64,000 nucleotides of DNA from NCBI GenBank assembly GCA_012523775.1, contig JAAYTK010000074.1:7055-71054 (forward strand), given 5' to 3'. Below the pieces are notes generated by a model that saw only the letters and a list, made by a program, of their open reading frames with translations, was not told the DNA's origin and did no database searches. This document shows, one piece after another, positions 25,863 to 43,306 of this stretch. Origin of the DNA: Clostridiales bacterium. GTDB taxonomy: Bacteria > Bacillota > Clostridia > Lachnospirales > Lachnospiraceae. A program made the position numbers and the translations under genes. Every line of letters begins with the position of its first letter. The first letter of the stretch is position 1.

Positions 25863-27590
25863 ATGAGAAAAATCATGATTCCTGTAATGTTTGCTTTACT
25901 CGTTATTCTGATAGCGGCAGGAATTTATAGTATGAATATATCAAAGCATGAACTTTCATATCCTTCTTTTTTAGAGGCCGTGGAAGAAGGACGGGTGACG
26001 AAAGTTATAATATATAAAAACGGCAGTACTCTGGATGGCTATATGTCGGACAATCCCAATATAAAGTATACAATTCCAAATCCAATGACCGAGGATTTCA
26101 TTGAATATCTCCTTATTAATGATATAACGGTATCCTATAAGAGCAACAGCTTTTCCGGTATTGCCGGAGTTATAGTCGTTGCGGTGGTTGCATTTGGCAT
26201 CATATATTATACCCGCAGCGGAGGCTCGGTAAATAATCTTATTAAAGATGCCAACAAAAAGGATGAAAGTGGCAGAATCACTCTGGACTCCGTTGCCGGC
26301 AATACTGAAGCCAAATCCATGGTTGAAGATATTATTGGCTTTATTAAAAATCCCGCACAATATACCGATGTGGGTGCCCGTATGCCTAAGGGACTTCTTT
26401 TCTATGGTCCTCCGGGAACAGGTAAAACCCTTATGGCAAAGGCTATTGCAGGCGAGGCGAATGTTCCTTTCTATGCAATGAGTGGCTCCGATTTCGTACA
26501 GATGTATGTGGGTGTAGGCGCAAGTCGGATTCGAAACCTTTTTAATAAGGCAAAAAAACATGAAAAGGCAGTAATTTTTATTGACGAAATAGATGCCATA
26601 GGTAAGAAAAGAGCCCGTAACAGCTCTGCCAGTAATGACGAAAGAGATCAGACTCTCAATGCATTACTTACGGAAATGTCAGGCTTTCATGATAACCAGG
26701 GTATAGTCGTGATTGGTGCTACCAACCGAATGGACACCCTGGATGAAGCCCTTCTTCGGCCCGGACGGTTTGACAGGCAAATAGAAATAGGGCTTCCCGA
26801 CGTGAACTCAAGAGAGAAAATACTTAGACTTCATACTAAGAATAAGCCTCTGTCAGAAGATGTTGACCTAAAGGCTTTGGCAAAATCCACCGTAGGCTTC
26901 TCAGGGGCAATGCTGGAAAATCTGCTAAACGAGGCTGCCATAACGGCAGCTAACGACCATAAATCAATAATCAGTCAAAGGCATATTGACAGAGCCTTTT
27001 ACACAGTAGTTGCAGGTGCACCGAAGACTGATTTAAGCTATATATCCACCCGTGAAAGGGAAATAACCGCCTATCATGAGGCGGGACATGCTCTCGCAAC
27101 CAAACTCCTGCTTCCGGAAAATTATATATCGAAGGTAACGATTATTCCCAGTGTCAGAGGTGCCGGCGGCTTTAATCTTAGTATTCCGAAGGATACCATG
27201 TATCGGTCCCAGAGACAAATTCTGGGAAGCATTAAGATATTGTTGGCCGGAAGAGCCGCAGAGGAAATCATATTCGGCTCTCATGAGGTGACGACGGGAG
27301 CAAGCCATGATATTCAAAGAGCATCCTCACTTATCGTGGACTATACGAATAAATACGGCATGGATCCCGACATGGGTTTATTCAGCACACAGGTATTAAG
27401 CGAGGGAGTCGATAAGGACGTTATAGAAAAATGCCGGACAATAATAAATAACCTCTACGAGGAAACCAAGGAAATAATGGCTAAGAACATCTCCTTACTG
27501 GAGGGCATCGCAAAGGAGCTCCTCATAAAGGAATCCTTAAGTGGTGAGGATATAGATAAGCTCATTGCTTGTGAATCAAAAGCGGTTTAG
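25863..27590 (+). CDS. ftsH: FtsH-family AAA+ zinc metalloprotease (short, probably a paralogue)
   Basis: Two TM segments, GPPGTGKT, IFIDEID, LLRPGRFDR and HEAGH. Start moved to ATG 25863 (SD GGAGGGAG). Confidence 0.9.
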   Translation: MRKIMIPVMFALLVILIAAGIYSMNISKHELSYPSFLEAVEEGRVTKVIIYKNGSTLDGYMSDNPNIKYTIPNPMTEDFIEYLLINDITVSYKSNSFSGIAGVIVVAVVAFGIIYYTRSGGSVNNLIKDANKKDESGRITLDSVAGNTEAKSMVEDIIGFIKNPAQYTDVGARMPKGLLFYGPPGTGKTLMAKAIAGEANVPFYAMSGSDFVQMYVGVGASRIRNLFNKAKKHEKAVIFIDEIDAIGKKRARNSSASNDERDQTLNALLTEMSGFHDNQGIVVIGATNRMDTLDEALLRPGRFDRQIEIGLPDVNSREKILRLHTKNKPLSEDVDLKALAKSTVGFSGAMLENLLNEAAITAANDHKSIISQRHIDRAFYTVVAGAPKTDLSYISTREREITAYHEAGHALATKLLLPENYISKVTIIPSVRGAGGFNLSIPKDTMYRSQRQILGSIKILLAGRAAEEIIFGSHEVTTGASHDIQRASSLIVDYTNKYGMDPDMGLFSTQVLSEGVDKDVIEKCRTIINNLYEETKEIMAKNISLLEGIAKELLIKESLSGEDIDKLIACESKAV

Positions 27591-29373
27591 ACAGCTTACA
27601 CACCCTTCTGTCATAGGTGAAGAGTCCATTCACTTCATCCTCGATATCTGAAAGCTGGGTGTAGACAACAGCAGACAAGCCTTCCTTTATCATAATCGTT
27701 ATGTCCTCTTGATAGAGTCTCTGTAATGCCGATTCTAAAGCTTCCGTGCCGTTATATAACCTGTAGCCATAAATTCTTGGCGAATAAGAATGACCTGAAA
27801 TATAACAGGCATACCCACCAAATTCAGATAATACTACTGAACGTCCTCTTTTATCAGAAGTATATTTTAAAGGATGGAAGTAATTATGTATGCTTTTAAA
27901 ATCTCCTCCCTTTTGATCGTACCAGCCACTGGCCTGATCAATCAGTCTCGTATCATCGATTGAACGAATCAGAGTCGTTATTTTATTTGCATCGAATTGT
28001 CCCCATCCCTCGTTAAAGGGAACCCATACAACTATAGATGGATTATTATAAAGATGCCTTATGGTATCTTCACATTCCCGAATCCATTCCCTTCTTCCGT
28101 CTGCATTTTTACGACCGAATAGCAGATAGTGTTTATCCTTAATTCTGCATGCTAAACACGGGAATATTGTGGGAAGATACCCAACCAGAAGCTTATTATA
28201 CCTGCCACCCCCGTTAACCATATCCTGCCATACCAGCATACCAAGTCTGTCACAATGATAATACCAACGCAGTGGCTCTAGCTTAATATGTTTTCTAAGC
28301 ATATTAAAGCCCAAGGCCTTAGCCTGCTCTATGTCAAAAATCATGGCCTCATCACTGGGTGCGGTATATAGACCGTCAGGCCAATATCCCTGATCCAGAA
28401 GTCCGTTTTGAAAATACGGTTCATTATTCAGATAAATTCGGCTGATACCGTTCTCATCCTGCCTAACCTCAATTTTTCGCATGGCAAAATAGCTGTGGAC
28501 GATATCATCCCCTGCATATATTACCATATCGTATAAATGAGGATTTTCAGGACTCCAATATGTAAAATTCTTTATGGGTATATTCATGGTAGAGTTCTTG
28601 GTTATAAAGGAGTGGATCTTACGGCCATGATCATAGATATCTATCCGAAATAAATTTCTAGTGGCTTTATTTTCGGCACTCAGATTGACTGTTAGCCTTA
28701 GTATGCTCTCATCCACCAATGGTGTAATACTTAAGGAGGTTATATATATCTCCGGCACCCACTCCATCCAGACAGTCTGCCATATGCCACTTTGTGCGGT
28801 ATAAAACATACCGCCTCTCTTTAACTTCTGCTTTCCCCTGCTGTGATAAGATGTATCGGATGAGTCCTTAACCCTAACGGTCAGAAGGTTTCCACCCTCA
28901 ATTACATAATCCGTAATATCTGCGGAAAAAGGAAGATACCCGCCGACATGTTGCATTATACTGTTATAATTTATCAATATCTCACAGGCTTGGTCCACCG
29001 CACCGAAATTAAGGATTAAACGTTTTCCCGGATACTTTTTTTCAATAATCAAAGGTCTCTCATACCAAAGTATTTCATCGGGCTTAAGCTGACGGTTTAC
29101 TCCCGACAGTATGCTTTCCGGTGAAAATGGCACCAGTATTTTCCCTTCATAGTGTGATGGCCTAATGTCTGCGGATTCCTTTGTTATATTATAATTCCAG
29201 TATCCGTTTAAAATCGTATAATCATTTCGTCTCAGCTGTGGTCTTGGATATTCAGTCAGTACAGTGTCGGGATTCAACTCTTCTCCCCATTTTGTATAAA
29301 GCTGATTATAATTATTTTCCCTGCTCCTAAACAGTAAGGTTCGGACAGCATCCTTAAGCTTCAAATAATACAC
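27562..29373 (-). CDS. Glycoside hydrolase family 2 (intracellular)
   Basis: EYPRPQ, LNFGAVD, LDQGYWPDGLYTAP, RKHIK, WVPFNEGWGQ (acid/base) and LSEFGG (nucleophile). No signal peptide. Confidence 0.9.
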   Translation of the reverse strand: MYYLKLKDAVRTLLFRSRENNYNQLYTKWGEELNPDTVLTEYPRPQLRRNDYTILNGYWNYNITKESADIRPSHYEGKILVPFSPESILSGVNRQLKPDEILWYERPLIIEKKYPGKRLILNFGAVDQACEILINYNSIMQHVGGYLPFSADITDYVIEGGNLLTVRVKDSSDTSYHSRGKQKLKRGGMFYTAQSGIWQTVWMEWVPEIYITSLSITPLVDESILRLTVNLSAENKATRNLFRIDIYDHGRKIHSFITKNSTMNIPIKNFTYWSPENPHLYDMVIYAGDDIVHSYFAMRKIEVRQDENGISRIYLNNEPYFQNGLLDQGYWPDGLYTAPSDEAMIFDIEQAKALGFNMLRKHIKLEPLRWYYHCDRLGMLVWQDMVNGGGRYNKLLVGYLPTIFPCLACRIKDKHYLLFGRKNADGRREWIRECEDTIRHLYNNPSIVVWVPFNEGWGQFDANKITTLIRSIDDTRLIDQASGWYDQKGGDFKSIHNYFHPLKYTSDKRGRSVVLSEFGGYACYISGHSYSPRIYGYRLYNGTEALESALQRLYQEDITIMIKEGLSAVVYTQLSDIEDEVNGLFTYDRRVCKLSKPLLIHKQ

Positions 29374-29638: not shown

Positions 29639-30997
29639 ATGGGTTTTCCAAAGGATTTTATTTGGGGTGCGGCTTCTGCATCATATCAGATCGAAGGAGC
29701 TGCTTTTGAAGACGGCAGAGGACCCTCTGTCTGGGATACATTTTCACATACTAAAGGAAAAGTTAAAAATGAGGATAACGGAGACATAGCCTGTGACCAT
29801 TATCATCGCTTTCGGGAGGACGTTAAGCTAATGAAGGACATGGGGCTTAAGGCGTACCGCTTCTCAATCAGCTGGTCCAGAGTACTTCCCGAGGGAATCG
29901 GCAGAATAAATGAAGACGGGCTCAGTTTCTATAGCGATTTGGTGGATGAGCTGTTAAAGGCAGGCATCGAGCCCTTTATTACACTGTTTCATTGGGACCT
30001 TCCTCAGGCATTATATGATAAGGGTGGCTGGCGTAACAGAGATATATCGGATTGGTTTGCACAGTATACAAAAGTAGTCGTGGATGCCTTATCCGACAGG
30101 GTCAGCAACTGGATGACTCTTAATGAGCCTCTATGTCACATTTTACTGGGCCATTACTTAGGTGAGCATGCTCCCGGTGAAAAGGTTTCTTCCACCGAGG
30201 CCTTAAGACTTCTGCACAATATGAACCTTGCCCATGGTAAGGCTGTACAGACAATTCGCAAACATGCCAAAAAGCCCTGTAATATAGGAGTTGTCCCCAA
30301 TCCATACTCAGGTGTTCCTGCAACTGACACCAAGGAGGATCTTGATGCGGCCAGAGCTTTTACCATCAGCGGCACCTCCAGAGGTATTTTTTCCAATGGC
30401 TGGTGGTTGGACCCTCTGCTTATCGGAGAGTATCCAAAGTATGGAATAGAGGCTATGGGTAATGAATTCCCTGCTGACATGATTAAGGACGGGGATATGG
30501 AGATTATATGTCAGAAGCTTGATTTTCTGGGAATTAATGTTTATACCGGTTTGGTAATTAAGCATGATGACGTCCATGGATACAAAGTGTGCCCACATAG
30601 AAACGGATATGATCAGAATGCTCTCAAATGGGCTGTGGTTCCAAAGGTTCTATATTATCTGCCTAAATTCCTTTATGAAAGATACAAGCTTCCAATCATA
30701 GTCGCCGAAAACGGGACAACCCTCCCGGATTGGGTAAGTCTTGACGGTAAGGTACATGACCCGAATCGTATAGATTATATGCATCGTTATATTAAGGAAC
30801 TTAAAAGAGCCTCTATGGATGGCATAGACATCAGAGGATATTTTGCATGGTCCATAATGGATAACTTCGAATGGTCCGAAGGGTATAATGAAAGATTTGG
30901 ACTAATACATATTGATTTTAATACACTAAAGCGTACTCCAAAGGACTCATATTATTGGTATCAAAATCTTATATTACACAACGGGGATAATATCTAA
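29639..30997 (+). CDS. bglA: GH1 beta-glucosidase/beta-glycosidase
   Basis: FIWGAASASYQIEG, YRFSISWSR, TLFHWDLP, TLNEP, VAENG and DNFEW motifs. No signal peptide. Confidence 0.93.
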   Translation: MGFPKDFIWGAASASYQIEGAAFEDGRGPSVWDTFSHTKGKVKNEDNGDIACDHYHRFREDVKLMKDMGLKAYRFSISWSRVLPEGIGRINEDGLSFYSDLVDELLKAGIEPFITLFHWDLPQALYDKGGWRNRDISDWFAQYTKVVVDALSDRVSNWMTLNEPLCHILLGHYLGEHAPGEKVSSTEALRLLHNMNLAHGKAVQTIRKHAKKPCNIGVVPNPYSGVPATDTKEDLDAARAFTISGTSRGIFSNGWWLDPLLIGEYPKYGIEAMGNEFPADMIKDGDMEIICQKLDFLGINVYTGLVIKHDDVHGYKVCPHRNGYDQNALKWAVVPKVLYYLPKFLYERYKLPIIVAENGTTLPDWVSLDGKVHDPNRIDYMHRYIKELKRASMDGIDIRGYFAWSIMDNFEWSEGYNERFGLIHIDFNTLKRTPKDSYYWYQNLILHNGDNI

Positions 30998-31146
30998 ATA
31001 GGATGAAATATCACTAAAATCTATTGTATTTCATTGATTTTAATGTTATCATTAGTAATAATAAGTCAATAATGGTTGTAATTGGTTTTGTTATGACTTT
31101 TAGTGATTATTAGACAATATTAAAGGTGAAAATAGGAGGTATTTTC

Positions 31147-33291
31147 ATGTCTGAACAATCAGCAAGGAAAAAAGAACGAAATTATACAAGAATATTAATT
31201 TTTTCCAATGCAGTGGCAATACTTGTTTTATTAGCTATACTTACCTTTTTTAATTTATCAGACATCAAAGTTGCTGATACATTATTCTCTGTAGGCTTAA
31301 TAGTAATAATTGCCTTAGCCGCTCTATTATTAATATTTCTAATTCGGTTTTTCAGGGCCATTCGACATATTGATCGGAATGCCAAATTATTGGCTCAGGG
31401 AAGGCTTAATATTAGTGATATAATGGATGATAAGACTAAAGGCCTGGAATCATTGACTATAGCGGTAAATGACTTGAAAAGAAATCTCCTGAATTTTATC
31501 GAATCTACAAAATCCAATGTAATTATACTTTCAGACGCTGTTGATAATATTACCAAGAGTCTGGATATGAGCTATAAGGGCAACGAGCATATCGCAAGTA
31601 ATATGGCTACTGTGGCTGAGAAAGCACAGCAACAGCTCAAGATCGTTAAGGAAACCTTAGAAGGTATTGAAGAGGTTGCAAACAGAGCTAACAGTATTAC
31701 AACCACATTGGCTAATATTGAAGAATTTGTAGAAAATACTGTTAAAGTTACTGAAGAAGGATCGCAGCATGTGGATAAGTATAATGAACAGATGGAGGTT
31801 ATATCCACTAACTTATCCGACACCGCAGCATTTATTGAAGCACTAAATGCTCACCTTAAGGAAATTGACCAGGTTAACGGCTTAATTATAAATATTACCG
31901 AGCAGTTAAAGCTTCTCTCTTTGAATTCCGCTGTTGAAGCGGCCCGTGCCGGTGAAGCAGGAAGAGGCTTTGTAGTAGTTGCTCAAGAGATGAATAAGCT
32001 GTCGGCGATTACCAGAGACAGTATCGGTCAGATTAACAAACTTTTAAATAATATTCTTAACAGTAATGCCAAGGTAAGTGACAGTATTTCCAGCTGTGTT
32101 GAGAGTTTCGATATCAGTAAGGAAATATTTAATTCAGTAAAAGATACCTTCTATACAATCAACAAGAACGCTTACATATTAAATGATGATATGAAAAAGG
32201 TATACGAGGAGTCCCGTCTTATTAATGAAAACACCAAGGGGATCAGCGCTCAAGGCCAGATTCTACATGATGCTTCCAATGAGATCTCCTCTATAACACA
32301 GGATGTTGCAGCCGTAACGCAAGAAGAGCTTGCGGAAAATGAAGAGATTAATAATCAGGCATTATCATTACAGAATATGCTTTCAGGTATAGAAAAGCTT
32401 CTTATGAGATATAGAACCTCTGTTGTACCGGTTGATGAGGTTAGTCCGAAGAGACTTAAAATTGCATTATTCAGTCCGCTGGATCATCCCTTCTGGGAAG
32501 GCGTCAGACAGGGTGCCCTATATGCTCAGACTGAATTAAAGGCTAAGAATGTAGATGTGGAATATCTCGGATACCAAAAGGTGGACAGCAGACTTAATGA
32601 AGCTCTAAAGGAAAGAATTGCGAATAATTACGACGGACTTATACTACCGGGCTTCTTAGGCAATATTGATGAGGATTTAATAGAAGCCGGTCGTAAGAAC
32701 ATAGCCCTTATGTCATTTAACTGTGACTATAACGAGGGTATTGACAGAATAGCTTACTTCGGACCTAACATTCCTGCCTCCGGTAAACTGGCAGGCGAAG
32801 TTATGGCAAAGGCCTTAGATAATGAAGGCGAGATAGCTATCATTCGCGGAGCAATGAATAACTTTGTTAATAAGGTTCGTACAGAAGCAATATACAATAT
32901 CATAAAAAGTAAGAAGAAAATGAAGATAGCTACAGAAATAGAAGCCGAAGCCGATAATGATCTGGTGTTTATGAACACCAAGGAAGCTCTCACCAGATTC
33001 CCCAACCTAAAGGGTATCGTTATACTTACAGGTGGAATTATCGGTGCAGCCAGAGCAGTCGAGCAAATGGGTCTTGTCGGAAAGGTTAAAATAGTATGCT
33101 TTGACTATGATGACGATGTTCTAAAACTTATTAAGAAGGGTATTATATATGCCGCTATCGGCCAGGATCCATTTGGACAGGGACACGATCCAATCATATC
33201 CATGTATAACTATCTGGTAACCGGTCAGAAACCCGATTCGATTTGCTATACAAGAACCGAGCTAATTGATATAAGAAGCGTAGCCGAATAG
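31147..33291 (+). CDS. Methyl-accepting chemotaxis protein fused to a C-terminal periplasmic-binding-protein-like (sugar-binding) domain
   Basis: Two adjacent TM helices and a HAMP-like region, then signalling hairpin QLKLLSLNSAVEAARAGEAGRGFVVVAQEM. The C-terminal RbsB/LacI-type fold reads HPFWEGVRQGA, YFGPN, R..A and YAAIGQDPFGQG. Start ATG 31147 (SD AGGAGG). Confidence 0.9.
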   Translation: MSEQSARKKERNYTRILIFSNAVAILVLLAILTFFNLSDIKVADTLFSVGLIVIIALAALLLIFLIRFFRAIRHIDRNAKLLAQGRLNISDIMDDKTKGLESLTIAVNDLKRNLLNFIESTKSNVIILSDAVDNITKSLDMSYKGNEHIASNMATVAEKAQQQLKIVKETLEGIEEVANRANSITTTLANIEEFVENTVKVTEEGSQHVDKYNEQMEVISTNLSDTAAFIEALNAHLKEIDQVNGLIINITEQLKLLSLNSAVEAARAGEAGRGFVVVAQEMNKLSAITRDSIGQINKLLNNILNSNAKVSDSISSCVESFDISKEIFNSVKDTFYTINKNAYILNDDMKKVYEESRLINENTKGISAQGQILHDASNEISSITQDVAAVTQEELAENEEINNQALSLQNMLSGIEKLLMRYRTSVVPVDEVSPKRLKIALFSPLDHPFWEGVRQGALYAQTELKAKNVDVEYLGYQKVDSRLNEALKERIANNYDGLILPGFLGNIDEDLIEAGRKNIALMSFNCDYNEGIDRIAYFGPNIPASGKLAGEVMAKALDNEGEIAIIRGAMNNFVNKVRTEAIYNIIKSKKKMKIATEIEAEADNDLVFMNTKEALTRFPNLKGIVILTGGIIGAARAVEQMGLVGKVKIVCFDYDDDVLKLIKKGIIYAAIGQDPFGQGHDPIISMYNYLVTGQKPDSICYTRTELIDIRSVAE

Positions 33292-33311: not shown

Positions 33312-33357
33312 AAAAATCAGAATGACCATACTTCAAATGAGGTATGGTCATTCTTTT
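33312..33357. terminator. Bidirectional terminator (MCP / small Cys protein)
   Basis: AGAATGACCATAC...GTATGGTCATTCT-TTT with an upstream A-tract. Confidence 0.7.
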
Positions 33358-33409: not shown

Positions 33410-33610
33410 CTAGGAAAATAAAGTACATCCCATAGTCTTTAGTCTTTCTATTCGTAAATATATATCCTCTTCCTCACACTTAAAATAATCGGCCAGACAT
33501 GGTATGCAAAGATATTCCTTAGCTCCCCTGTTAACCAGTCTTAAATAGATGGCAATCTCATCTCTTATTAATTCCTTGTGACAGTTTTTACACTTCATAT
33601 TATCTCTCAT
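33410..33610 (-). CDS. Small cysteine-rich hypothetical protein (possible metal-binding)
   Basis: CKNC..CIPC..C..GCTLF in 66 aa. Its ATG overlaps the TGA of the GH27 gene (ATGA), and a terminator follows. Confidence 0.75.
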   Translation of the reverse strand: MRDNMKCKNCHKELIRDEIAIYLRLVNRGAKEYLCIPCLADYFKCEEEDIYLRIERLKTMGCTLFS

Positions 33611-34737
33611 CTGATTCTTACAGGTTTAGCTCTTAATACCTTACAGTGATGTGGCTTAAGCTTACATGTAAAATGCTCTGTATATACGCCTATATCCTCA
33701 TGTTCCCATACATCCCGCAGCTGTAGTCCATATCCCGATGAAGCTGTTAAGCCCATATCCCAAAATTGAAGAGAGCCTTCACCATCCGTATCACCCATAT
33801 TAAAAAAGCCTATTCCAAAATCCCCATCAGATAAGGGCTTTATGTAGATTTTGACATCACTGTTATTCCATTGCTCCATGCTATAAGCCTGACGCCCCTC
33901 GGGATCTTGGTTTATGGCAATAATCTCTTTATTGGCCAGAATCTTATGAGTAGCCTCATTCATGTTGCGGATATCACAGCCTATCATCAGGGGAGAAGTC
34001 ATGATACACCAAAGGGAGAAATGGGTCTTATACTCTTCGTCTGTACAGCCTCCTAAAGCAACATTACCCTTTCCATACATACCTACAACCAGCATATCAA
34101 GGTCATTATAGCAGTATGGTGCACTATAGCATTCTTTATTCCATTGACTAAGCACAATGTTTTTAATGGATTCCCAGTTGTCCTGAATATCACCGGTAGA
34201 ACGGTACATATGAGCCCCTGTAGCCCGAATCCATTCATGGGTGTTATCACTTCCCCAATTACATGCTGAGAATAAAATGTCTCTTCCACAATTTTTAAGG
34301 GCCATTCCCATGCGTTTGTATAGGATATGACCGGGAATATTATGGGGCTTGTAGCAATAGTCATATTTTAAGAAATCTACCCCCCATTCCGCAAATGTTT
34401 CGGCGTCAGTAAATTCGTGATCCAGACTGGATGGATGACCTGCACAGGTCATGGTACCGGCACAGGAATACATACCGAATTTCAAGCCCTTTGAGTGAAC
34501 ATAATCTGCAACCGCTTTCATTCCGCTAGGAAATTTATCAGGATCGGCTACCAAATGACCATCCTTATCTCTGCTTTTTAAGGACCAGCAGTCATCTATA
34601 ACCAGATATTGATATCCCGCTTCCAAGAGGCCCAGCTCGTTCCAGATATCCGCAGTCTCCTTGATTAGTTCCTCAGAAATATCCCAACCGAAGGTATTCC
34701 ATGAGTTCCATCCCATAGGTGGTGTATGTGCTAACAT
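33607..34737 (-). CDS. GH27 alpha-galactosidase (or beta-L-arabinopyranosidase)
   Basis: TPPMGWNSWN, YLVIDDCW, FLKYDYC (nucleophile), RSTGDI (acid/base) and NDLDML motifs. Start ATG 34737 (SD AAGGAG). Confidence 0.93.
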   Translation of the reverse strand: MLAHTPPMGWNSWNTFGWDISEELIKETADIWNELGLLEAGYQYLVIDDCWSLKSRDKDGHLVADPDKFPSGMKAVADYVHSKGLKFGMYSCAGTMTCAGHPSSLDHEFTDAETFAEWGVDFLKYDYCYKPHNIPGHILYKRMGMALKNCGRDILFSACNWGSDNTHEWIRATGAHMYRSTGDIQDNWESIKNIVLSQWNKECYSAPYCYNDLDMLVVGMYGKGNVALGGCTDEEYKTHFSLWCIMTSPLMIGCDIRNMNEATHKILANKEIIAINQDPEGRQAYSMEQWNNSDVKIYIKPLSDGDFGIGFFNMGDTDGEGSLQFWDMGLTASSGYGLQLRDVWEHEDIGVYTEHFTCKLKPHHCKVLRAKPVRIR

Positions 34738-34826
34738 ATGCTTCTCCTTTCTTATGCCGTTATAATATAGGCAAGATAAAAATCCTTTGTGCATTAAGGT
34801 GCAATTACTTTGTCAGTGCATAGCGA

Positions 34827-35876
34827 TTACTCGGCTACACTTACTGATTTATTTGAGGATTCTCTAAAGATTACTTCTACACCGACAAATATTACTTCTT
34901 TAGGAAAGATGGGATTCTTCAGTCTCCACATAAGCTGCTGTACAAGTCTTCTGCCGAGTCTTTGATTGCCTACCCGTACAGTTGTCAGAAACGGCTCAAC
35001 CTTCGACATCTCCTCTACATTATCATATCCTGTAACAGCCACATCCTTCGGTACGGACAGTCCCTTGGAATTCAGATAACGCATGACATACAATGCTATA
35101 TCATCATTTGCACACACGATGGCCTCGGGCATATACGGGAATAATGAAAGGGCAGCCTCAACCTCCTCAGGCTTATAAAACTTAGTGTTGGCATGATAAG
35201 TGGCTATAATATCTTTATCAGGCTTAATACCCGCCTCCAGCAAGGCACTTTCATATCCTATATAACGGTCGTAAATTGTCCTGCAATATGTTGTATCACC
35301 GATAAATCCAATTTTCCTCATACCTCTGTTTATAAGGTCTGTGGTAATCTTCTTCATGCTGTCCATGCTTTCGCAGATTATAATATCTCCATATGAGGTA
35401 ATCTCCTGAATATTGCTGGGAGCATCCAAAAAGACCACGGGAATATTATATTTCATTATCTGATTGATATATTCCTTAGTGAACACACTAAGAATAATGA
35501 TTCCGCTTACTTCTTCCTGTAAATCTAAGGGTAAAACCAGATTTTTCTCGTCTTGTTCACTTATAAAATTCAACTGAAGCTTACAACCGTTTGTATTTAA
35601 TTCATCCGATATCCCCATTATTATACTGTTCCAAAATACTGATATTTCTCTACGGGTAAGCACCACGATTGTCTTGGTTTCATCAATCTTGTTACGAAGC
35701 TTAAACTGATTTAATACTACAGGAGATAATTTAGAATATCCCATTTCATAGGCTTTCTTTATTACAATATACCTTGTCTCATAGGACACTGTATCGCTGT
35801 TGTTTAACGCCTTTGCGACGGTGTTTCTCGACAAATTTAATTCTCTGGCTACATCTTGAATTGTAACCTTCTTCAT
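34827..35876 (-). CDS. LacI-family transcriptional regulator
   Basis: N-terminal HTH VTIQDVARELNLSRNTVAKALN and sugar-binding domain (CANDDIA, VPKDVAVTGYDN). Confidence 0.95.
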   Translation of the reverse strand: MKKVTIQDVARELNLSRNTVAKALNNSDTVSYETRYIVIKKAYEMGYSKLSPVVLNQFKLRNKIDETKTIVVLTRREISVFWNSIIMGISDELNTNGCKLQLNFISEQDEKNLVLPLDLQEEVSGIIILSVFTKEYINQIMKYNIPVVFLDAPSNIQEITSYGDIIICESMDSMKKITTDLINRGMRKIGFIGDTTYCRTIYDRYIGYESALLEAGIKPDKDIIATYHANTKFYKPEEVEAALSLFPYMPEAIVCANDDIALYVMRYLNSKGLSVPKDVAVTGYDNVEEMSKVEPFLTTVRVGNQRLGRRLVQQLMWRLKNPIFPKEVIFVGVEVIFRESSNKSVSVAE

Positions 35877-36028: not shown

Positions 36029-36967
36029 CTAATCGATATAAGATACAATCAACTCCATATTCCCTTTGAGTTTGAATTTGCCGTATCCTGTGCAAAGAAT
36101 GAAGTGATCTCCCTTTGTTATCGGAGCTTTGTCAATTTCTCCATTACCCTCGATTACACTAATATTCATGAAATCCTTATCCTGGTTAAGTGTTATCTCT
36201 CCATCATTATAAATGCTTATTTTTTTCAGTGTATAATGCTTGTTCTTAATCAGTTCTCTGATTTCACAGTTATTTCTTTTAATGATTTTATCATCAATAA
36301 TTGCATCCTTATGGGGGCAGTTTATTACATCAATGCTTTCCTTTATATGCAATTGTCTTGGTTTACCATCCACAAGCCTGCCATAATCATAGAGTCTGTA
36401 TGTAATATCACTGTTTTGCTGCGTTTCGAGGAGTAATGTTCCTTCCTTTATCGCATGGACGGTTCCGGGATTAATCTGAAAGAAATCACCCTTCCTTATA
36501 TTACGTAACCTTATCAGCTCGTCCCATTTATCATTCTCTATCATATATTCTAATTCCTCTTTATCCTTAGCATTATGACCTATTACTATCTCTGCATTCA
36601 CATCGCAATCCAGTATGTACCAGCATTCTGTTTTTCCCAAAGCACCGTTTTCATGGGTATATGCATAGGAATCACTAGGATGTACCTGTATACTGAGGTC
36701 TTGTTTTGCATCTATTATTTTAACAAGTAAGGGAAATGTCTGCTCGCTTCTGTTACCGAATAAATGGCGTTTGTTTTCCCAGAGCCAGCTTAAGGTTTTT
36801 CCCTTATATGTACCGTTTTTTATTGTGCAGTCTCCGTTGGGATGCGCACTGATTGCCCAACATTCCCCGGTAAAGTCATTAGGGATATCATAACCATATT
36901 CGGTTCTCAGTCTGTCACCACCCCATACCATTGTTTTAAATACAGGCTCAAGAAAAAGTATCTCCAT
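36029..36967 (-). CDS. manA: Mannose-6-phosphate isomerase, class I
   Basis: WGGDRL, GECWAISAHPNG, LLVKIIDA, LSIQVHP, GKTECWY, GTVHAI and ETQQNSDITYRLYDY motifs. Confidence 0.95.
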   Translation of the reverse strand: MEILFLEPVFKTMVWGGDRLRTEYGYDIPNDFTGECWAISAHPNGDCTIKNGTYKGKTLSWLWENKRHLFGNRSEQTFPLLVKIIDAKQDLSIQVHPSDSYAYTHENGALGKTECWYILDCDVNAEIVIGHNAKDKEELEYMIENDKWDELIRLRNIRKGDFFQINPGTVHAIKEGTLLLETQQNSDITYRLYDYGRLVDGKPRQLHIKESIDVINCPHKDAIIDDKIIKRNNCEIRELIKNKHYTLKKISIYNDGEITLNQDKDFMNISVIEGNGEIDKAPITKGDHFILCTGYGKFKLKGNMELIVSYID

Positions 36968-37150: not shown

Positions 37151-38599
37151 CTATTGCTCCAATAAACTATTGATCTGAGCAGATTCTGAAGCTGTTATCG
37201 TGATATTATTACCTGTCACACTATCCAGCTTATTGTTACTTCCTGATACGAAAACGTCACCTATCTTGTATGCCGCTTCGCCGTCATCACCTTTTCCGGT
37301 ATCTATGGTGAGCCCTTCGAAGTGAACGTTTTTAAGCTGTGTATTCTTAGCTTCGATGGCAACAGTGGCTGCCGTAACAGAAATTCCGGAATTCACCTTG
37401 AGCTTTACGTTAAAGTTCTCAAATGTTACATTCTCAATATATGCTCCGTCCAAGGTATTGAATAATCCAATGGTTTTACTTTTATCCATATCGACCTTTC
37501 TGCTGGTGATACTAAGAGTTATATTCTTCAGACTATATCCGTTTCCTAGAATCTTTCCGCTGAAATTATCAGCCATTGTTACGGTAACACCCGTAAAATC
37601 AATATCATTGGACAGTATATATCCATCCACCGGATTTCCCAGCCTATCAAAACCTGAGAACCAAACCTTGCCGCTACTCTTTAAATCATCCACCTTAGTA
37701 ATTCGAGCATAGTTGCCCTCTGAATATTTTAGATAGATAATCTTGTTGGAAGCATTCTCAATATAGTGATTAATCGCGTTCTCATATAGTTCATCTTTAT
37801 ATTTACGAATGCTAGCTCTGATATCCTTATCATCCGTTGTAATCTCATAACCAAGCTTATTTATAAATAAATCAGAAGTATCCTCTTCTGACCTATCGTC
37901 GTCATCAGCAGGCTCGACATAGTTTATTTTCTTAATATAGTCCGGAAACTCTGCGTGTAGCTGTTCATAAATCTCTTCGTTTGAAGGAATTAATTCAGCA
38001 TGGATATATTCAGAAAAATCATAAGTTGTGGTTAAGGCCTTATCGGCATAATAACCCTCAAAGGTATATCCACTTTTAGCTATAAGCATTTCAGCAGCAC
38101 TTGATAATTCCTGTACTGCAGACTCCTCAGATATATTCTTTGAAAACATCACATTATCTGTTGAGGCATCGACATAATCGATTTTTCCCTGAGGAATCCA
38201 TCTTGCGTAGAGAGTCATGTCTTCCTGTACTCTGTCCTCATCAAAATCCCATCTGTCTTCTGCCTTAAAGGAGTATCCAATAATATTCCCATTTGCATCC
38301 TTAATATCCTCTTTAGCGGTGTACCATCCGGCCAGAATATGTCCGTCCTTGACAGGCTGGATCAGCATATTTGTTGAACCCGAAGGCTTGAACAGATACG
38401 AATTCTTCATATAGAAAGTCTCACGTATCTCCCTTGAGTTTACTGTCCCGCCTAATGCATCATATATTACTGTGCAGTCGTAACCCCATTCTTTCGGATC
38501 AGCGGCTTTATCAGCTACACCACAAGAACTTAAAAATAAGCTGGTTGCCAATATTATAATGACAGGCATCATGCGGTGTAATTTTTTATTCTTTATCAT
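37151..38599 (-). CDS. Surface lipoprotein with InlB B-repeat-like modules and C-terminal GLUG-like beta-rich domain
   Basis: Lipobox LSSC. Repeats V.YDALGG..P.KDG..GWY..WDF..D.TLYARW and KSGYTFEGYY. C-terminal YILSNDIDF..FSGKILGNG..GLF..IENV. Confidence 0.7.
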   Translation of the reverse strand: MIKNKKLHRMMPVIIILATSLFLSSCGVADKAADPKEWGYDCTVIYDALGGTVNSREIRETFYMKNSYLFKPSGSTNMLIQPVKDGHILAGWYTAKEDIKDANGNIIGYSFKAEDRWDFDEDRVQEDMTLYARWIPQGKIDYVDASTDNVMFSKNISEESAVQELSSAAEMLIAKSGYTFEGYYADKALTTTYDFSEYIHAELIPSNEEIYEQLHAEFPDYIKKINYVEPADDDDRSEEDTSDLFINKLGYEITTDDKDIRASIRKYKDELYENAINHYIENASNKIIYLKYSEGNYARITKVDDLKSSGKVWFSGFDRLGNPVDGYILSNDIDFTGVTVTMADNFSGKILGNGYSLKNITLSITSRKVDMDKSKTIGLFNTLDGAYIENVTFENFNVKLKVNSGISVTAATVAIEAKNTQLKNVHFEGLTIDTGKGDDGEAAYKIGDVFVSGSNNKLDSVTGNNITITASESAQINSLLEQ

Positions 38600-38908: not shown

Positions 38909-39913
38909 CTACTCTTGACTATACAGATGACATGCAACACTGTGCCCCTCTTCATATTCCTTAAGTATCGGTGTCTGTTTAGCACAGATAGGCATAGCAT
39001 TAGGGCATCTGGTACGGAATTTGCACCCTGAAGGTGGTTTAACAGGACTAGGGATGTCTCCCTTTAATATAATTCTGTTCATCTTTACATCCGGGTCGGG
39101 CACCGGTACCGCAGACAAAAGTGCTTTGGTATACGGATGCATCGGATTAGCAAAAATACGCTTCTTGTCTCCTATCTCCATCATGCTGCCCAGATACATG
39201 ACTCCAATTGTATCTGAAATATATTCTACTACAGACAAATCGTGTGAAATAAACAGATACGTATAGCCGTATCTCTCCTGCAAATCCTTCATAAGATTTA
39301 TAATCTGTGCCTGAATGGACACATCCAGTGCGCTGACAGGCTCATCACAGATTATAAACTTTGGTTTCAATGCCACTGCTCTTGCAATACTTATTCTTTG
39401 TCTCTGTCCACCGGAAAACTCATGGGGGTAACGGTAAAAATACTGTGGCTGTAGACCACAATCCCTCATTATTTTCATAATATAGGATCTATATTGATCT
39501 TTAGGTACAATATTGTGTTCCTTTACTGCCTCTCCAATGATCTCTCCAATAGGAAGACGTGGAGACAGGCTCGAATATGGATCCTGAAAAATCATCTGTA
39601 GCTGTGGACGCATTTTTCTAAGTTCTCTGGGAGGAACCTTTGCCAGATCCTTACCGTCAAAAATAACCTGACCGTCTGTTACTTCATGAAGACGTAAAAT
39701 TGTACGTCCCACAGTGGTTTTACCACAACCCGATTCTCCTACAAGGCCCATTGTAGTTCCCCGCTTTATACTAAAGGAAACGTCATCAACAGCTTTTACA
39801 TAAGCTTTTCTCTTTCCAATGGAAATCTTGGAGATGGGGTAGTATTTCTTAAGGTTTCTAACAATTAAAATATCATCATTTGTTGTCTTGTTTTCTATAT
39901 TCTCAATAGCCAG
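38909..39913 (-). CDS. oppF: Oligopeptide/dipeptide-family ABC ATPase (OppF); start extended to CTG 39913
   Basis: [27 protein letters not shown] and HPYT..CKFRTRC. The frame stays open upstream of ATG 39751 ([21 protein letters not shown]) up to an in-frame TAG. The only start with an SD (AGGAGG, 9 nt spacer) is CTG at 39913. Confidence 0.9.
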
Positions 39914-39919
39914 GGCTGA

Positions 39920-41128
39920 CTACCTCCTCTCCTTTTCTTCTTCACTCTTTTCGCTTCCGTCTTTATTGTATAAATGACAGGCAGCAAAATGAGTTGGCGA
40001 AAACTGTATCATATCAGGATATTCCTGCCCACATATACTCATAGCCTTGTCACATCTATTATAAAAATAACAATGATTTGGCATATTAATTGGATTAGGC
40101 ACCTGTCCCTTAATGCTGTACAGTCTGTCCTCTGTCTTATTATGACCTCCCGGCCTTGACTTCATAAGTCCTATGGTATAAGGATGCTTAGGGCTGTGGA
40201 ATATCTCCTGAACAGTTCCTTTTTCAATTATTCTGCCGGCATACATGACAACGACAGTATCAGCCATTTCGGCGATTACTCCCAAATCATGAGTAATCAA
40301 CATGATGCTTCCGTTAATCTTATCCTTAACTTCCCGTAATAACTCCAATATCTGAGCCTGGATGGTAACATCCAAAGCGGTTGTAGGCTCATCGGCAATT
40401 ATAAGTCTGGGATTGCAAGCAAGAGCCATGGCAATCATAACTCTCTGACGCATACCACCGGACAGCTCATGAGGATAGCTGTCATAAACCTTCTCTACCG
40501 CAGCAATACCAACCAAATTCAACATCTCAATTGTTCTGGCCTTTGCCGACTCAGCCGTAGCCCCTTCTGTATGAAGCAAAACTACTTCATCCATCTGATA
40601 ACCTATCTTAAATACAGGATTTAGACTGGTCATCGGCTCCTGGAATATCATAGCTATATCCTTACCGCGAATATTAAGCATCTTATCCTTAGGCATTTTT
40701 GTGATTTCATAGCATTTTCCATCACCGGCCTGATAACGAATACTGCCGTCAACGATTTGTCCGGTCGGTGCCTGAACAAGCTGCATGAGAGAAAGACTTG
40801 TAACTGACTTACCACATCCTGACTCTCCAACAACACCAACGATCTGTCCCTGAGGTATATCGAAGCTGACACCGTTCACGGATTTTACAGTACCGACATC
40901 GGTGAAAAAGTATGTGTGAAGATTGTCAAACTCTACTACATTGGCAGGATCTCTCATCTCGGTAAGATATTCCTCTTCCGATACGTTTTTCCTGTTTTTT
41001 TCCTTTTCAAATTTCTTAATAATTTTGTTATTTTCCTTACTGATACGTCTCTCGTCCCTCAACGTAAGGTAAGTTGTATTGTCAACGCCTTCTATTTTAC
41101 CGCGTTTTAATTTGTCTAATAGTCCCAT
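39920..41128 (-). CDS. oppD: Oligopeptide/dipeptide-family ABC ATPase (OppD) with about 60-aa N-terminal extension
   Basis: [28 protein letters not shown] and [10 protein letters not shown] motifs. Confidence 0.95.
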
Positions 41129-41136
41129 GGTATCAC

Positions 41137-42207
41137 CTACCTTTTCATTCTAGGGTCAAATGCATCCCTAAGGCCATCGCCTATAAAACTAAAGCCTAAC
41201 ACTGTTACAACAATTAATATACCTGCTGGTACCCACATATTAGGGTAATGTGCAAGAATCTCCTGTCCTCTGGAAGGATCGGCAAGCGCTATCATCGAGC
41301 CCCATGCAGCCCTAGGGAACGGAACACCAAGTCCAAGGTAAGAAAGAGTCGACTCATAAAGAATTACTCCTCCCAATCCCAAGGTTGCGCTTACAATCAA
41401 CTGTGGCATGGTGTTCGGAACGAGATGCTTGAATATCTTATTCCATGCTGAGATTCCTGTTGTTTCGGCTGCCATCATATATTCCTGCTCTCTCAGCATG
41501 AGTATCTGTCCTCTTACAATTCGGGCTGGACCAGTCCATCCCATCAAAGTCATAAATGCCATCAGATAATAAATTCTGTGCTCCGCCGGAATGCTTTCGA
41601 TGGAACTGATTGCCGCCGAAAGTACTAAAAGTATCGGCATACCGGGAAGACATGAAAATATATCAACAATTCTCATAACAACTTGGTCGACCCATTTTCC
41701 GTAATAACCAGCCAAGCCACCAAGAAGTATTCCTAAAAGCATTTCTATAATAATAACAATAAAGGATATTGTTAATGAAATACGTCCGCCATACATAAGG
41801 CGTGTAAATATATCGAAACCAGACGTATCCGTACCAAGCCAGTGCTCAGTTGACGGAGGCGCTTTAAAAAGTACCAATGTCTGGGATTTGTCATAATAAG
41901 TATATGGCTTTCCATCAGGCCCAATAAACTCGGCAGTGGTTACCATATCTGCATTCCGCTCAATTTTGAAAACCTGTGTTTCTTTATAGCCCCAAGTAGC
42001 GTCGATTATTAACGGCCCCAAAAATGAGAATATAAACACAAATATTATCATAATAAGGCCTGCGATTGACAACTTACTCTTAAAAAACCTTTTAGCTACC
42101 ATACGACCTGGAGATATTACTCTAAAATGCTGATCTACATTTAATTCAGCATTGTCCTGATGGTCAATATTATTCTGTTTTAAATCGTTTTCAGTATTTA
42201 ATGCCAT
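41137..42207 (-). CDS. oppC: Opp-family ABC permease C
   Basis: HWLGTD..GFDIFTRLMYGGRISL, EAA loop REQEYMMAAETTG, and GDGLRDAFDP. Confidence 0.95.
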   Translation of the reverse strand: MALNTENDLKQNNIDHQDNAELNVDQHFRVISPGRMVAKRFFKSKLSIAGLIMIIFVFIFSFLGPLIIDATWGYKETQVFKIERNADMVTTAEFIGPDGKPYTYYDKSQTLVLFKAPPSTEHWLGTDTSGFDIFTRLMYGGRISLTISFIVIIIEMLLGILLGGLAGYYGKWVDQVVMRIVDIFSCLPGMPILLVLSAAISSIESIPAEHRIYYLMAFMTLMGWTGPARIVRGQILMLREQEYMMAAETTGISAWNKIFKHLVPNTMPQLIVSATLGLGGVILYESTLSYLGLGVPFPRAAWGSMIALADPSRGQEILAHYPNMWVPAGILIVVTVLGFSFIGDGLRDAFDPRMKR

Positions 42208-42221
42208 TGATATCCCCCTTC

Positions 42222-43232
42222 CTATGATAGTTTAACACGGGGATCAACCACCATGTACATAATATCCGATATTAGCATACCAAGTACCGTTAGTATAGCT
42301 AAAAACATATTGTAACCCATTATAAAAGGTATATCTCCCTGCGTTGTTGCTCTCAGAGCCATATAACCGATTCCGGGAATTGCAAACACTGTCTCAGTGA
42401 TCATAGCACCGCCAAACAGTCCGGGAAGCATACCTGAAAGTGATGTAACCAGCGGAATCATGGTATTTCTAAATGCATGCTTGTAGGTTACTACCTTTTC
42501 AGACAATCCCTTTGCCCGTGCGGTTCTTATATAGTCCGAATTCAGTACCTCCAGCATGTTGGTTCTGGTAAATTTCATAGTACTGCCTACACCCAAAAGT
42601 GTCAGAACAGTTATTGGCAATACCAAATGCCACGCTTTATCCAATAAAATCTGAAAGTGAGCATCGGGTGCAAAAATCTTCGTCGCTGTCGTTAACCCCT
42701 GTAATGGGAAAATACCTAATCTTATAGCAAAAACATTCATAAGCAGTGCGGACAAAAAGAAAGAGGGTAAGGATGCACCCATCATAGCAAAAACCGAAAC
42801 GGTGTAGTCATAAGCACTGTATTGATTTACAGAGGCCTTAATTCCCATCGGTATTCCGATTAGAATCTGTAAAATAAATGATATTAAAGCAATCATAAAT
42901 GATATCCATATATAATCGGAAAGGACGTCTGTAACAGGCTTGCCGTACACAAAGGAATGACCCAGATCACCGGTTAAGGTACCTGTCAGCCATGTCCCAT
43001 AGCTCTTTAATATTCCGGTAAAGCTTTTGTCAGCAAGACCATATAGCTCTTTTAAGCGCTGAACATCCTCTTGGGTCATTGCACCGCTTTGTAGAGCGGC
43101 TGATGTTTGATTATCAATATAGTCTGCAGGCATAAGCATAGAAAGCATATAGATTAAAACCGATACGCCTGCCAATATCAGCAATGCCAATGCTATTCTT
43201 TTAAGTAAATATTTCCACATATTAGCCCTCAA
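42222..43232 (-). CDS. oppB: Opp-family ABC permease B
   Basis: GDLGHS, HLVLP, DYIRTARAKGL, HAFRN, ETVFAIPG and DPRVK motifs. Confidence 0.95.
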   Translation of the reverse strand: MRANMWKYLLKRIALALLILAGVSVLIYMLSMLMPADYIDNQTSAALQSGAMTQEDVQRLKELYGLADKSFTGILKSYGTWLTGTLTGDLGHSFVYGKPVTDVLSDYIWISFMIALISFILQILIGIPMGIKASVNQYSAYDYTVSVFAMMGASLPSFFLSALLMNVFAIRLGIFPLQGLTTATKIFAPDAHFQILLDKAWHLVLPITVLTLLGVGSTMKFTRTNMLEVLNSDYIRTARAKGLSEKVVTYKHAFRNTMIPLVTSLSGMLPGLFGGAMITETVFAIPGIGYMALRATTQGDIPFIMGYNMFLAILTVLGMLISDIMYMVVDPRVKLS

Positions 43233-43245
43233 TCCATTAAGAAGT

Positions 43246-43275
43246 GGTACAAGGCTTAATTATAAGCCTTGTACC
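43246..43275 (-). other. Intergenic stem-loop between oppA and oppB (no U-tract)
   Basis: Perfect 13-bp stem GGTACAAGGCTTA / TAAGCCTTGTACC. Confidence 0.7.
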
Positions 43276-43306
43276 CTTAATATATTCTTCTAATCTTCTA
43301 ATAATA

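Follow-up and report, generated by a model that had tools for sequence, protein, structure and literature searches.

Architecture and topology of the receptor gene

The sequence analysed here (the window) is a 64,000-nucleotide stretch of contig JAAYTK010000074.1 from a Lachnospiraceae genome (Clostridiales bacterium, assembly GCA_012523775.1), and its subject is the gene at 31147–33291 on the forward strand, which encodes a membrane-anchored methyl-accepting chemotaxis protein (MCP) with a type-I periplasmic-binding-protein (PBP) domain at its C-terminus. The forward-strand frame 31126–33291 is one long, uninterrupted open reading frame (ORF) in the ORF list. Direct reading of the sequence places a ribosome-binding site, AGGAGG, at 31134–31139 (+), 7 nt before the ATG at 31147, and the product was therefore taken as 714 residues. 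The stop codon occupies 33289–33291 and an intrinsic-terminator-like hairpin with a 16-bp stem lies 3′ of the gene at 33319–33354 (+); all receptor features described below are on the + strand.

Pfam matches MCPsignal (PF00015) to residues 197–356 (E = 2.6e-23, 83 bits against a cut-off of 34.6) and Peripla_BP_4 (PF13407) to residues 444–693 (E = 1.5e-37, 130 bits), the latter being the C-terminal sensor; there were no Pfam matches to CZB, hemerythrin or PilZ domains in the receptor. It has no dedicated NCBIfam family, only sub-threshold matches to chemoreceptors and to rhamnose- and allose-binding proteins. An AlphaFold2 monomer model, built from a 54-sequence family alignment (mean predicted local distance difference test score, pLDDT, of 78), comprises helices 13–37 and 44–83, a long helical hairpin (98–420) and an alpha/beta domain (437–712) with a pLDDT of about 85–90. 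A preliminary description of the locus had placed a binding domain of about 280 residues from approximately position 32455, and the modelled domain indeed begins at residue 437, which is nucleotide 32455.

Hydropathy reveals only two hydrophobic segments, both within residues 1–75. The first transmembrane (TM) segment, TM1 (approximately residues 15–35; 31189–31251), is also indicated by the charge count and the modelled helix 13–37, and TM2 (approximately residues 46–68; 31282–31350) by the model. They are separated by a net-acidic extracytoplasmic loop of approximately ten residues, NLSDIKVADT (31252–31281), which has no ligand-binding domain, as the preliminary description had proposed. Four Lys/Arg residues lie ahead of TM1, in a basic N-terminus that reads ...ARKKERNYTR, and five lie past TM2, a distribution that fits an N-in/C-in orientation. 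No TM segment follows the hairpin, which has to contact CheA/CheW, and the binding domain is accordingly placed in the cytoplasm, as had been claimed for it from the two TM segments alone. A hidden third TM segment, which would put the PBP domain outside the cell, was considered and rejected, as there is no hydrophobic segment beyond residue 80. The extracytoplasmic location typical of type-I PBPs (conferred by a signal peptide, a lipobox or a preceding TM segment) is thus not found in the receptor. The same organization extends to 32 diverse representatives, taken at 50% identity and 26–52% identical to the query: their N-termini contain two TM segments with a short loop, a single TM segment or, in a few cases, none, and in none of the 32 is there room for an extracellular sensor. 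The single-TM relatives form a subgroup of approximately 680 residues, with the TM segment at the extreme N-terminus.

TM2 is followed by a HAMP-like linker (approximately residues 69–120; 31351–31506), containing ...AQGRLNISDI...GLESLTIAVNDLKRNL. The Pfam HAMP profile (PF00672) is not significant in the receptor itself; it is, however, significant at the same position in 7 of the 32 relatives, the linker aligns with the HAMP region of the other MCPs in the genome, and an AS1–connector–AS2 pattern is visible on reading the sequence. The signalling coiled-coil hairpin (approximately residues 121–420; 31507–32406), identified by PF00015 and by alignment, is complete, as claimed: relative to five other MCPs of the same genome, no insertion or deletion occurs between HAMP and the hairpin's end, and the two arms, measured between conserved landmarks, have lengths of exactly 137 and 149 residues in all 32 relatives. 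The hairpin presumably belongs to the 44H class. Its tip is LLSLNSAVEAARAGEAGRGF (residues 256–275), and the tip sequence LLSLNSAVEAARAGEAGRGFVVVA aligns with six co-resident MCPs; the tip core LLSLN..EAARAGE.G.GF.VVA.E is conserved and the tip variant QEMNKLS is invariant in the close clade (relatives with at least 50% identity). AVTQEELA (residues 389–396; 32311–32334) is conserved and falls in one alignment column with ...SAEEMNA... in the remaining MCPs of the genome, and both its pattern and its position make it a candidate methylation/deamidation site. The last helix is joined to the first strand of the binding domain by a linker, RYRTSVVPVDEVSPKR (32407–32454), in which T424 and P428 are conserved. 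In the family it follows the pattern ..F/Y-x-T-x-x-x-P..K-x-L-K-I and has equal length in 30 of the 32 representatives; this near-constant length argues for mechanical coupling over a loose tether.

The PBP domain itself (residues 437–712; 32455–33282) was delimited with Pfam, AlphaFold2 and Foldseek. By sequence, its closest solved relative is XylFII of C. beijerinckii (5XSJ/5XSS, E = 1e-20), accompanied by the T. maritima glucose-binding protein. The top Foldseek matches are 6GUQ and 6GQ0, and the best structures are GanP (glucose/galactose), tmGBP, XylFII, AraP and CbpD, with target-normalised TM-scores of 0.74–0.86 against GanP, tmGBP and XylFII. GanP, XylFII and AraP, among the nearest structures, are binders dedicated to signalling, and XylFII acts on the kinase LytS (PMC8050422). 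The sugar-coordinating pocket positions, namely the aromatic pair F449/W450, N525 (the Asp/Asn position following strand 4), R578, D653 and Q673/D674, are invariant or nearly so across the relatives, with at least 90% conservation for all of them up to Q673. N525 aligns with D103 of XylFII, the only XylFII residue mapped, via a PDB mutant entry, and we presume a correspondence of the pocket positions with RbsB residue numbers. The positions flanking the pocket are clade-specific, SPLDHPFW / FNCDF / FDYD in the close clade versus SMLDNDFW / NCDC / FDHNQ in the one-TM clade, and the overall pattern is what a conserved binding scaffold would show if its specificity had diversified. The domain also carries a family signature, GQDPFGQGHDP. 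The architecture and topology of the receptor are thereby established.

The family of fused receptors

At least 120 clusters were obtained in a word-indexed search, made up of proteins of approximately 715 residues, 56–84% identical and all carrying both PF00015 and PF13407, including those of Mobilitalea sibirica and Herbinix. When the binding domain alone was used in HMMER against 1.84 billion representatives, 45 matches were obtained at E <= 1e-30, most of them to proteins of 680–730 residues with the domain at the C-terminus. The 32 diverse representatives were drawn from these proteins; MCPsignal and Peripla_BP_4 are both present in 32/32 of them, and a complete HAMP-MCP-PBP protein is encoded at 68 of 73 loci examined, the other five being contig-end pieces or a short fragment. 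The fusion is therefore full-length in relatives, which answers the concern that it might be an artefact of this assembly, and its conservation is established. When 93 binding domains were placed in a maximum-likelihood tree, the fused ones all fell into one clade (SH-aLRT, the approximate likelihood ratio test support, of 99), within which three non-fused rows are gene fragments; the clade adjoins lipoprotein solute-binding proteins, with the LacI-type helix-turn-helix (HTH) regulators further off. Together, the tree and the loci indicate that this lineage of binding domains is nowhere found free-standing and, judged from these sequences, the MCP-PBP fusion is obligate and arose once.

The signature GQD[PA]F[GR]QG[HY] was found in 160 species in a scan of one genome per species. 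The carriers, many of which are known to degrade fibre, are anaerobic Clostridia: they include Herbinix, Mobilitalea, Lachnoclostridium, Pseudobacteroides cellulosolvens (with two copies), Acetivibrio alkalicellulosi, Herbivorax, Thermoclostridium caenicola, Ruminiclostridium, Caloramator quimbayensis, and Lachnospiraceae and Oscillospiraceae from rumen, horse gut and digesters. The full fusion is present in the isolates Mobilitalea sibirica DSM 26468, Pseudobacteroides cellulosolvens ATCC 35603, Thermoclostridium caenicola DSM 19027 and Caloramator quimbayensis. The gene is sparse: within the window's own family 9 of 301 genera have it, and in a class-wide sample it was present in 7 of 399 genomes. 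Identity to copies in other orders is 46–48%, as against 30–38% to most copies from the same family, and this higher identity across orders than within the family suggests paralogous subfamilies, lateral transfer, or both. In public databases the proteins bear automatic names, such as "substrate-binding domain-containing protein", and our literature searches found no paper describing the combination of a membrane-anchored MCP with a C-terminal PBP domain.

Other fusions of PBP domains were encountered during these searches. Approximately 50 proteins of 770–880 residues (P0153, P0158, P0171, P0176, P0180 and others) have two N-terminal TM segments, a short loop and a related PBP domain matched in two stretches, followed by a long C-terminal region of unassigned type; their PBP domain would also be cytoplasmic if there is no further TM segment. 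Near distant MCP-PBP members, two genes (L045:12744-14660 (+) and L047:5224-7803 (+)) encode other PBP-fused signalling proteins, the fusions being an N-terminal LacI-type PBP core with GGDEF and a PBP core with HisKA-HATPase-REC; the gene for a PBP-HisKA-HATPase-REC protein lies directly upstream of an MCP-PBP gene. At a further locus (L050:11285-12580 (-)) a relative's MCP-PBP gene is clustered with two other MCP genes, one of which encodes a C-terminal CZB domain, so that two different C-terminal-sensor receptors are encoded within 3 kb. In these Lachnospiraceae, the use of cytoplasmic PBP domains as sensors may be more widespread.

Genomic neighbourhood and chemotaxis machinery

The receptor gene lies in a region rich in glycoside hydrolase (GH) genes. 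Pfam confirmed the setting given in the preliminary description, with a GH1 gene directly upstream and GH2, GH27 and manA genes nearby: the GH1 gene (29639–30997, +) ends 149 nt before the receptor gene on the same strand, the GH2 gene (27562–29373, −) precedes it, and the GH27 alpha-galactosidase (33607–34794, −), a LacI-family regulator (34827–35876, −) and the mannose-6-phosphate isomerase ManA (36029–36967, −) follow the receptor gene. Beyond manA are a 482-residue lipoprotein with Listeria-Bacteroides repeats (Flg_new; 37151–38599, −) and, adjoining the GH locus, an Opp-type ATP-binding cassette (ABC) system with an 826-residue SBP_bac_5 protein (38909–45787, −). No signal peptide was seen on direct reading of the N-termini of the GH1, GH2 and GH27 proteins, and these enzymes are taken as cytoplasmic. 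In Thermotoga, proteins of the SBP_bac_5 type have manno- and cello-oligosaccharides as ligands (PMC8050422, Table 2), and it is plausible that the Opp-type system is an oligosaccharide importer feeding the cytoplasmic hydrolases. No terminator was called between the GH1 and receptor genes, in a promoter and terminator scan that was not decisive there, and the neighbourhood of the receptor gene contains no pair of a LytS/YesM-type kinase and a YesN-type regulator.

The extent to which receptor genes co-occur with GH loci was surveyed by context clustering of all ORFs within four genes of the receptor gene. In the close clade, mannose-6-phosphate isomerase and GH113 each recur at eight loci, GH27 and GH2 each at seven, GH1 and LacI each at six, GH130 mannoside phosphorylase and a GDSL esterase each at five, and an epimerase of the N-acetylglucosamine 2-epimerase family, which includes mannobiose 2-epimerases, at four; at least one of these genes is present at a minimum of 18 of about 30 close-clade loci. 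The recurring genes are those of mannan use, and the setting of the close clade is that of galactomannan-utilisation loci. An 80%-identical relative has a GH1 gene directly upstream of its receptor gene, the Mobilitalea sibirica locus has GH2 and GH1 genes 5 kb upstream and the isomerase gene directly downstream, and the Herbinix locus keeps the backbone synteny with GH1 absent. In the one-TM rumen clade a GH43 gene is repeatedly found directly upstream, with GH3 nearby and an AraC regulator downstream, and single members from the same GTDB family adjoin a GH10-esterase, GH51 or LacI regulator gene. Neighbours in the Pseudobacteroides-type clade are an iron-containing alcohol dehydrogenase and a PAS-GGDEF-EAL protein. 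When GH1, GH2, GH27 and ManA of the window were used as BLAST queries, no match was obtained in the flanking regions of nine distant members of the family. The association with GH loci is therefore present in the close clade and in some other clades, and is not universal: the hydrolase link is real but clade-specific.

The source genome (2.26 Mb, 99% complete) has a B. subtilis-type fla/che operon encoding CheY, FlhA/F/G, CheB, CheA (694 residues), CheW, CheC, CheD and FliA/SigD, with CheR encoded outside the operon, and the presence of a Che system alongside the receptor is thereby established. There is a single CheA, and among the seven MCP genes only the one described here includes a PBP domain. 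All 14 of the other carrier genomes tested contain CheW-domain genes, including CheA-sized ones, whereas the base rate of CheW-domain genes in the window's family is 82 of 151 genera (54%); for the eight carriers from this family alone, the chance of all having CheW is 0.54^8, or about 0.007. A scan for sigma-D-type promoters (TAAA-N14-16-CCGATA, at most one mismatch) gave no match upstream of any of the seven MCP genes, and so was uninformative. As a separate observation, in many Lachnospiraceae the CheW-like match falls in a CheA-sized frame with one in-frame stop (TAA, TAG or TGA; for example G091:C28:72675-73061 and G172:C1:66009-66392), which is probably the cheA stop codon read through into an adjacent cheW.

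Proposed function, alternatives and significance

The position of the sensor after the methyl-accepting (MA) hairpin had been described as unusual, but C-terminal sensors are already established in MCPs: TlpD of H. pylori and McpA of Salmonella have CZB domains, DcrH of D. vulgaris a hemerythrin domain, and Tlp1/Aer of A. brasilense a PilZ domain, in each case after the MA hairpin (PMC12871147, PMC13401364). In such an arrangement the sensor is cytoplasmic and lies next to the part of the coiled coil nearest the membrane, from where it has to act via the C-terminal helix. Crystal structures of TlpD show the C-terminal CZB domains straddling the coiled coil and transmitting by helix rotation (PMC12871147), and DcrH and Tlp1 are further receptors of this C-terminal-domain class (PMC13401364). 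The PBP sensor is a new variation among them. It is a two-lobed type-I PBP of approximately 280 residues, rather than a small helical bundle or PilZ barrel, its presumed ligand is a carbohydrate, rather than Zn/hypochlorous acid, O2 or cyclic di-GMP, and the receptor is membrane-anchored yet without an outside domain.

Control of an MCP by a Peripla_BP_4-type sugar binder is itself familiar from Trg, Tar and Tsr of E. coli with RbsB, MglB, MalE and LsrB (PMC8050422), but there a separate periplasmic PBP docks non-covalently on an extracellular sensor, whereas here the PBP is fused to the cytoplasmic C-terminus. The closest solved relatives, from XylFII-LytS-YesN of C. beijerinckii and GanPST and AraPST of G. 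stearothermophilus, are likewise monosaccharide binders that signal and are tied to polysaccharide use; the receptor differs from them in that XylFII, GanP and AraP are extracellular, separate polypeptides that signal to a histidine kinase, with transcription, not motility, as the output. In LacI/GalR repressors, too, sugar inside the cell is sensed by a type-I PBP fold located in the cytoplasm, and LacI-HTH proteins with a Peripla_BP_4-like core are related to the domain; the repressors, however, act by DNA binding, and in the tree the fused clade is nearer to the lipoprotein solute-binding proteins than to the LacI-HTH group. The functional logic is shared with phosphotransferase system (PTS) and energy taxis. 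In B. subtilis McpC/PTS taxis and in Aer taxis, behaviour follows the uptake or metabolism of the attractant and not its external concentration; there the phosphotransfer state or redox is sensed, whereas here a dedicated domain would read the product pool.

On balance, the sequence evidence makes it rather probable that the gene encodes a bona fide chemoreceptor whose sole sensor is a cytoplasmic Venus-flytrap sugar-binding domain of the RbsB/XylFII/GanP type. The computational checks that could have contradicted this reading all came out in its favour: a full-length fusion in relatives, a cytoplasmic binding domain, conserved pocket positions, a complete Che/flagellar system and GH loci that recur beside the gene clade by clade. 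Sugar binding, the identity of the ligand, the direction of the response and the mechanism of coupling to CheA are what we infer, and the following scheme is proposed. The two TM helices would serve only to anchor the receptor dimer in the membrane array. Fragments of plant polysaccharide, in this organism galacto/glucomannan oligosaccharides, would be imported, probably via the neighbouring Opp-type ABC system, and cleaved by the adjacent cytoplasmic GH1, GH2 and GH27 enzymes. A monosaccharide product, with mannose, galactose and glucose as the first candidates, would then bind the clamshell, the closure of which would shift the C-terminal helix where the bundle is closest to the membrane, beside HAMP and the methylation region; this shift would travel to the tip and alter CheA activity, with the receptor adapted by CheR, CheB and CheD. 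Because an imported and cleaved sugar would be sensed, taxis would report the substrate actually taken up and hydrolysed.

Several points weigh against this reading. The predicted TM-score (pTM) of the AlphaFold2 monomer is 0.46, and its interdomain geometry is unreliable. There is no universal gene partner, as the 126 nearest neighbours match 167 Pfam families, many loci (including those of Herbinix and the Pseudobacteroides clade) have no adjacent GH gene, and the hydrolase association in the close clade may partly be inherited synteny. The cytoplasmic sugar pool may also be too slow to provide a temporal gradient signal. Finally, the MCPsignal score of the receptor is the lowest of the genome's seven MCPs (83 versus 98–127 bits), and in the alignment with the other six a tip position that is usually Arg (Arg in five, Gly in the sixth) is occupied by Asn283 (31993–31995). 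The loss is family-wide, with T, N, S or K at this position across the MCP-PBP family, and the missing Arg (of ExxR) is presumably the equivalent of Tsr R388. With a divergent tip that lacks this Arg, coupling to CheA/CheW could be atypical. The low score and the lost Arg are also what would be seen if the receptor stood outside the flagellar Che pathway, as an MCP-like protein with a different signalling role or none, for example in gene regulation or as an array decoy, and MCP-like proteins with non-chemotactic output do exist (PMC12623472). However, the heptad length equals that of the co-resident MCPs, the tip core is conserved, the EE/QE methylation-like site is kept, and the genomic company of CheA/CheW (in every carrier tested, well above the base rate, with one CheA in the source genome) speaks for the Che pathway; we therefore regard an output outside it as very unlikely.

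What the binding domain senses could also be something other than a free sugar. Sugar phosphates and nucleobases are ligands of LacI-family cores, which are cytoplasmic and share this fold, and, given that the PBP domain is located in the cytoplasm, that LacI-HTH proteins are among its relatives and that GH neighbours are missing from many loci, it might respond to a phosphorylated or central metabolite (a sugar phosphate, nucleoside or similar) and so support a general metabolic-state taxis akin to energy taxis. Its nearest relatives in both sequence and structure nevertheless all bind neutral monosaccharides, and the clade-specific differences in the pocket track different hemicellulose loci, a better fit to diversified sugar specificity than to a single universal metabolite, so that this explanation is unlikely, if the least so of those considered. 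Slightly more doubtful is a role as a protein-docking or scaffolding module, not a small-molecule sensor, that might bind a further signalling or transport protein and so report transporter or enzyme activity, or just localise the receptor. The closest solved relatives do include PBPs that dock on signal transducers (XylFII-LytS, GanP, AraP), and the signature GQDPFGQGHDP reaches past the canonical pocket Gln and might provide a surface for interaction; but retention of all canonical sugar-coordinating positions over deep divergence is unexpected for a pure scaffold, XylFII-type docking itself depends on ligand, and no conserved neighbour gene hints at a fixed partner. As for an artefact of assembly or gene calling that joined an MCP gene to the gene of a sugar-binding protein, nothing was found in its favour, and the uninterrupted ORF, together with an identical architecture in isolate genomes and in more than 120 clusters whose assemblies are independent, refutes it to the point where its probability is negligible.

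Returning to the chemoreceptor with a cytoplasmic sugar sensor, a broader proposal, which we offer tentatively as somewhat short of an even prospect, extends it to the family as a whole: a single-origin, obligately fused family in approximately 160 species of fibre-degrading Clostridia, in which the Venus-flytrap domain, coupled rigidly to the receptor's last helix, would turn intracellular products of hemicellulose breakdown into a chemotactic signal, with its specificity diversified clade-wise (mannan in one case, xylan/arabinan in another). The receptor would be the first in which a full Venus-flytrap binding protein acts on the C-terminal helix of an MCP, a natural and modular design for linking a cytoplasmic PBP to a coiled coil, and the invariant arm and linker lengths would make it a clean system for following how clamshell motion becomes coiled-coil signalling. 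The family is easily testable, as Mobilitalea sibirica, Pseudobacteroides cellulosolvens and Thermoclostridium caenicola are cultured carriers and the binding domain, once isolated, is well suited to standard ligand screens; the design is also attractive for cytoplasmic biosensors. Little is understood of how motile anaerobes living on insoluble plant fibre locate their substrate and remain on it. If the proposal is true, these organisms would have a dedicated chemotaxis toward insoluble plant polysaccharides that is gated by uptake and hydrolysis, and the receptor, by reading the product pool in the cytoplasm, would couple their motility directly to the success of both.

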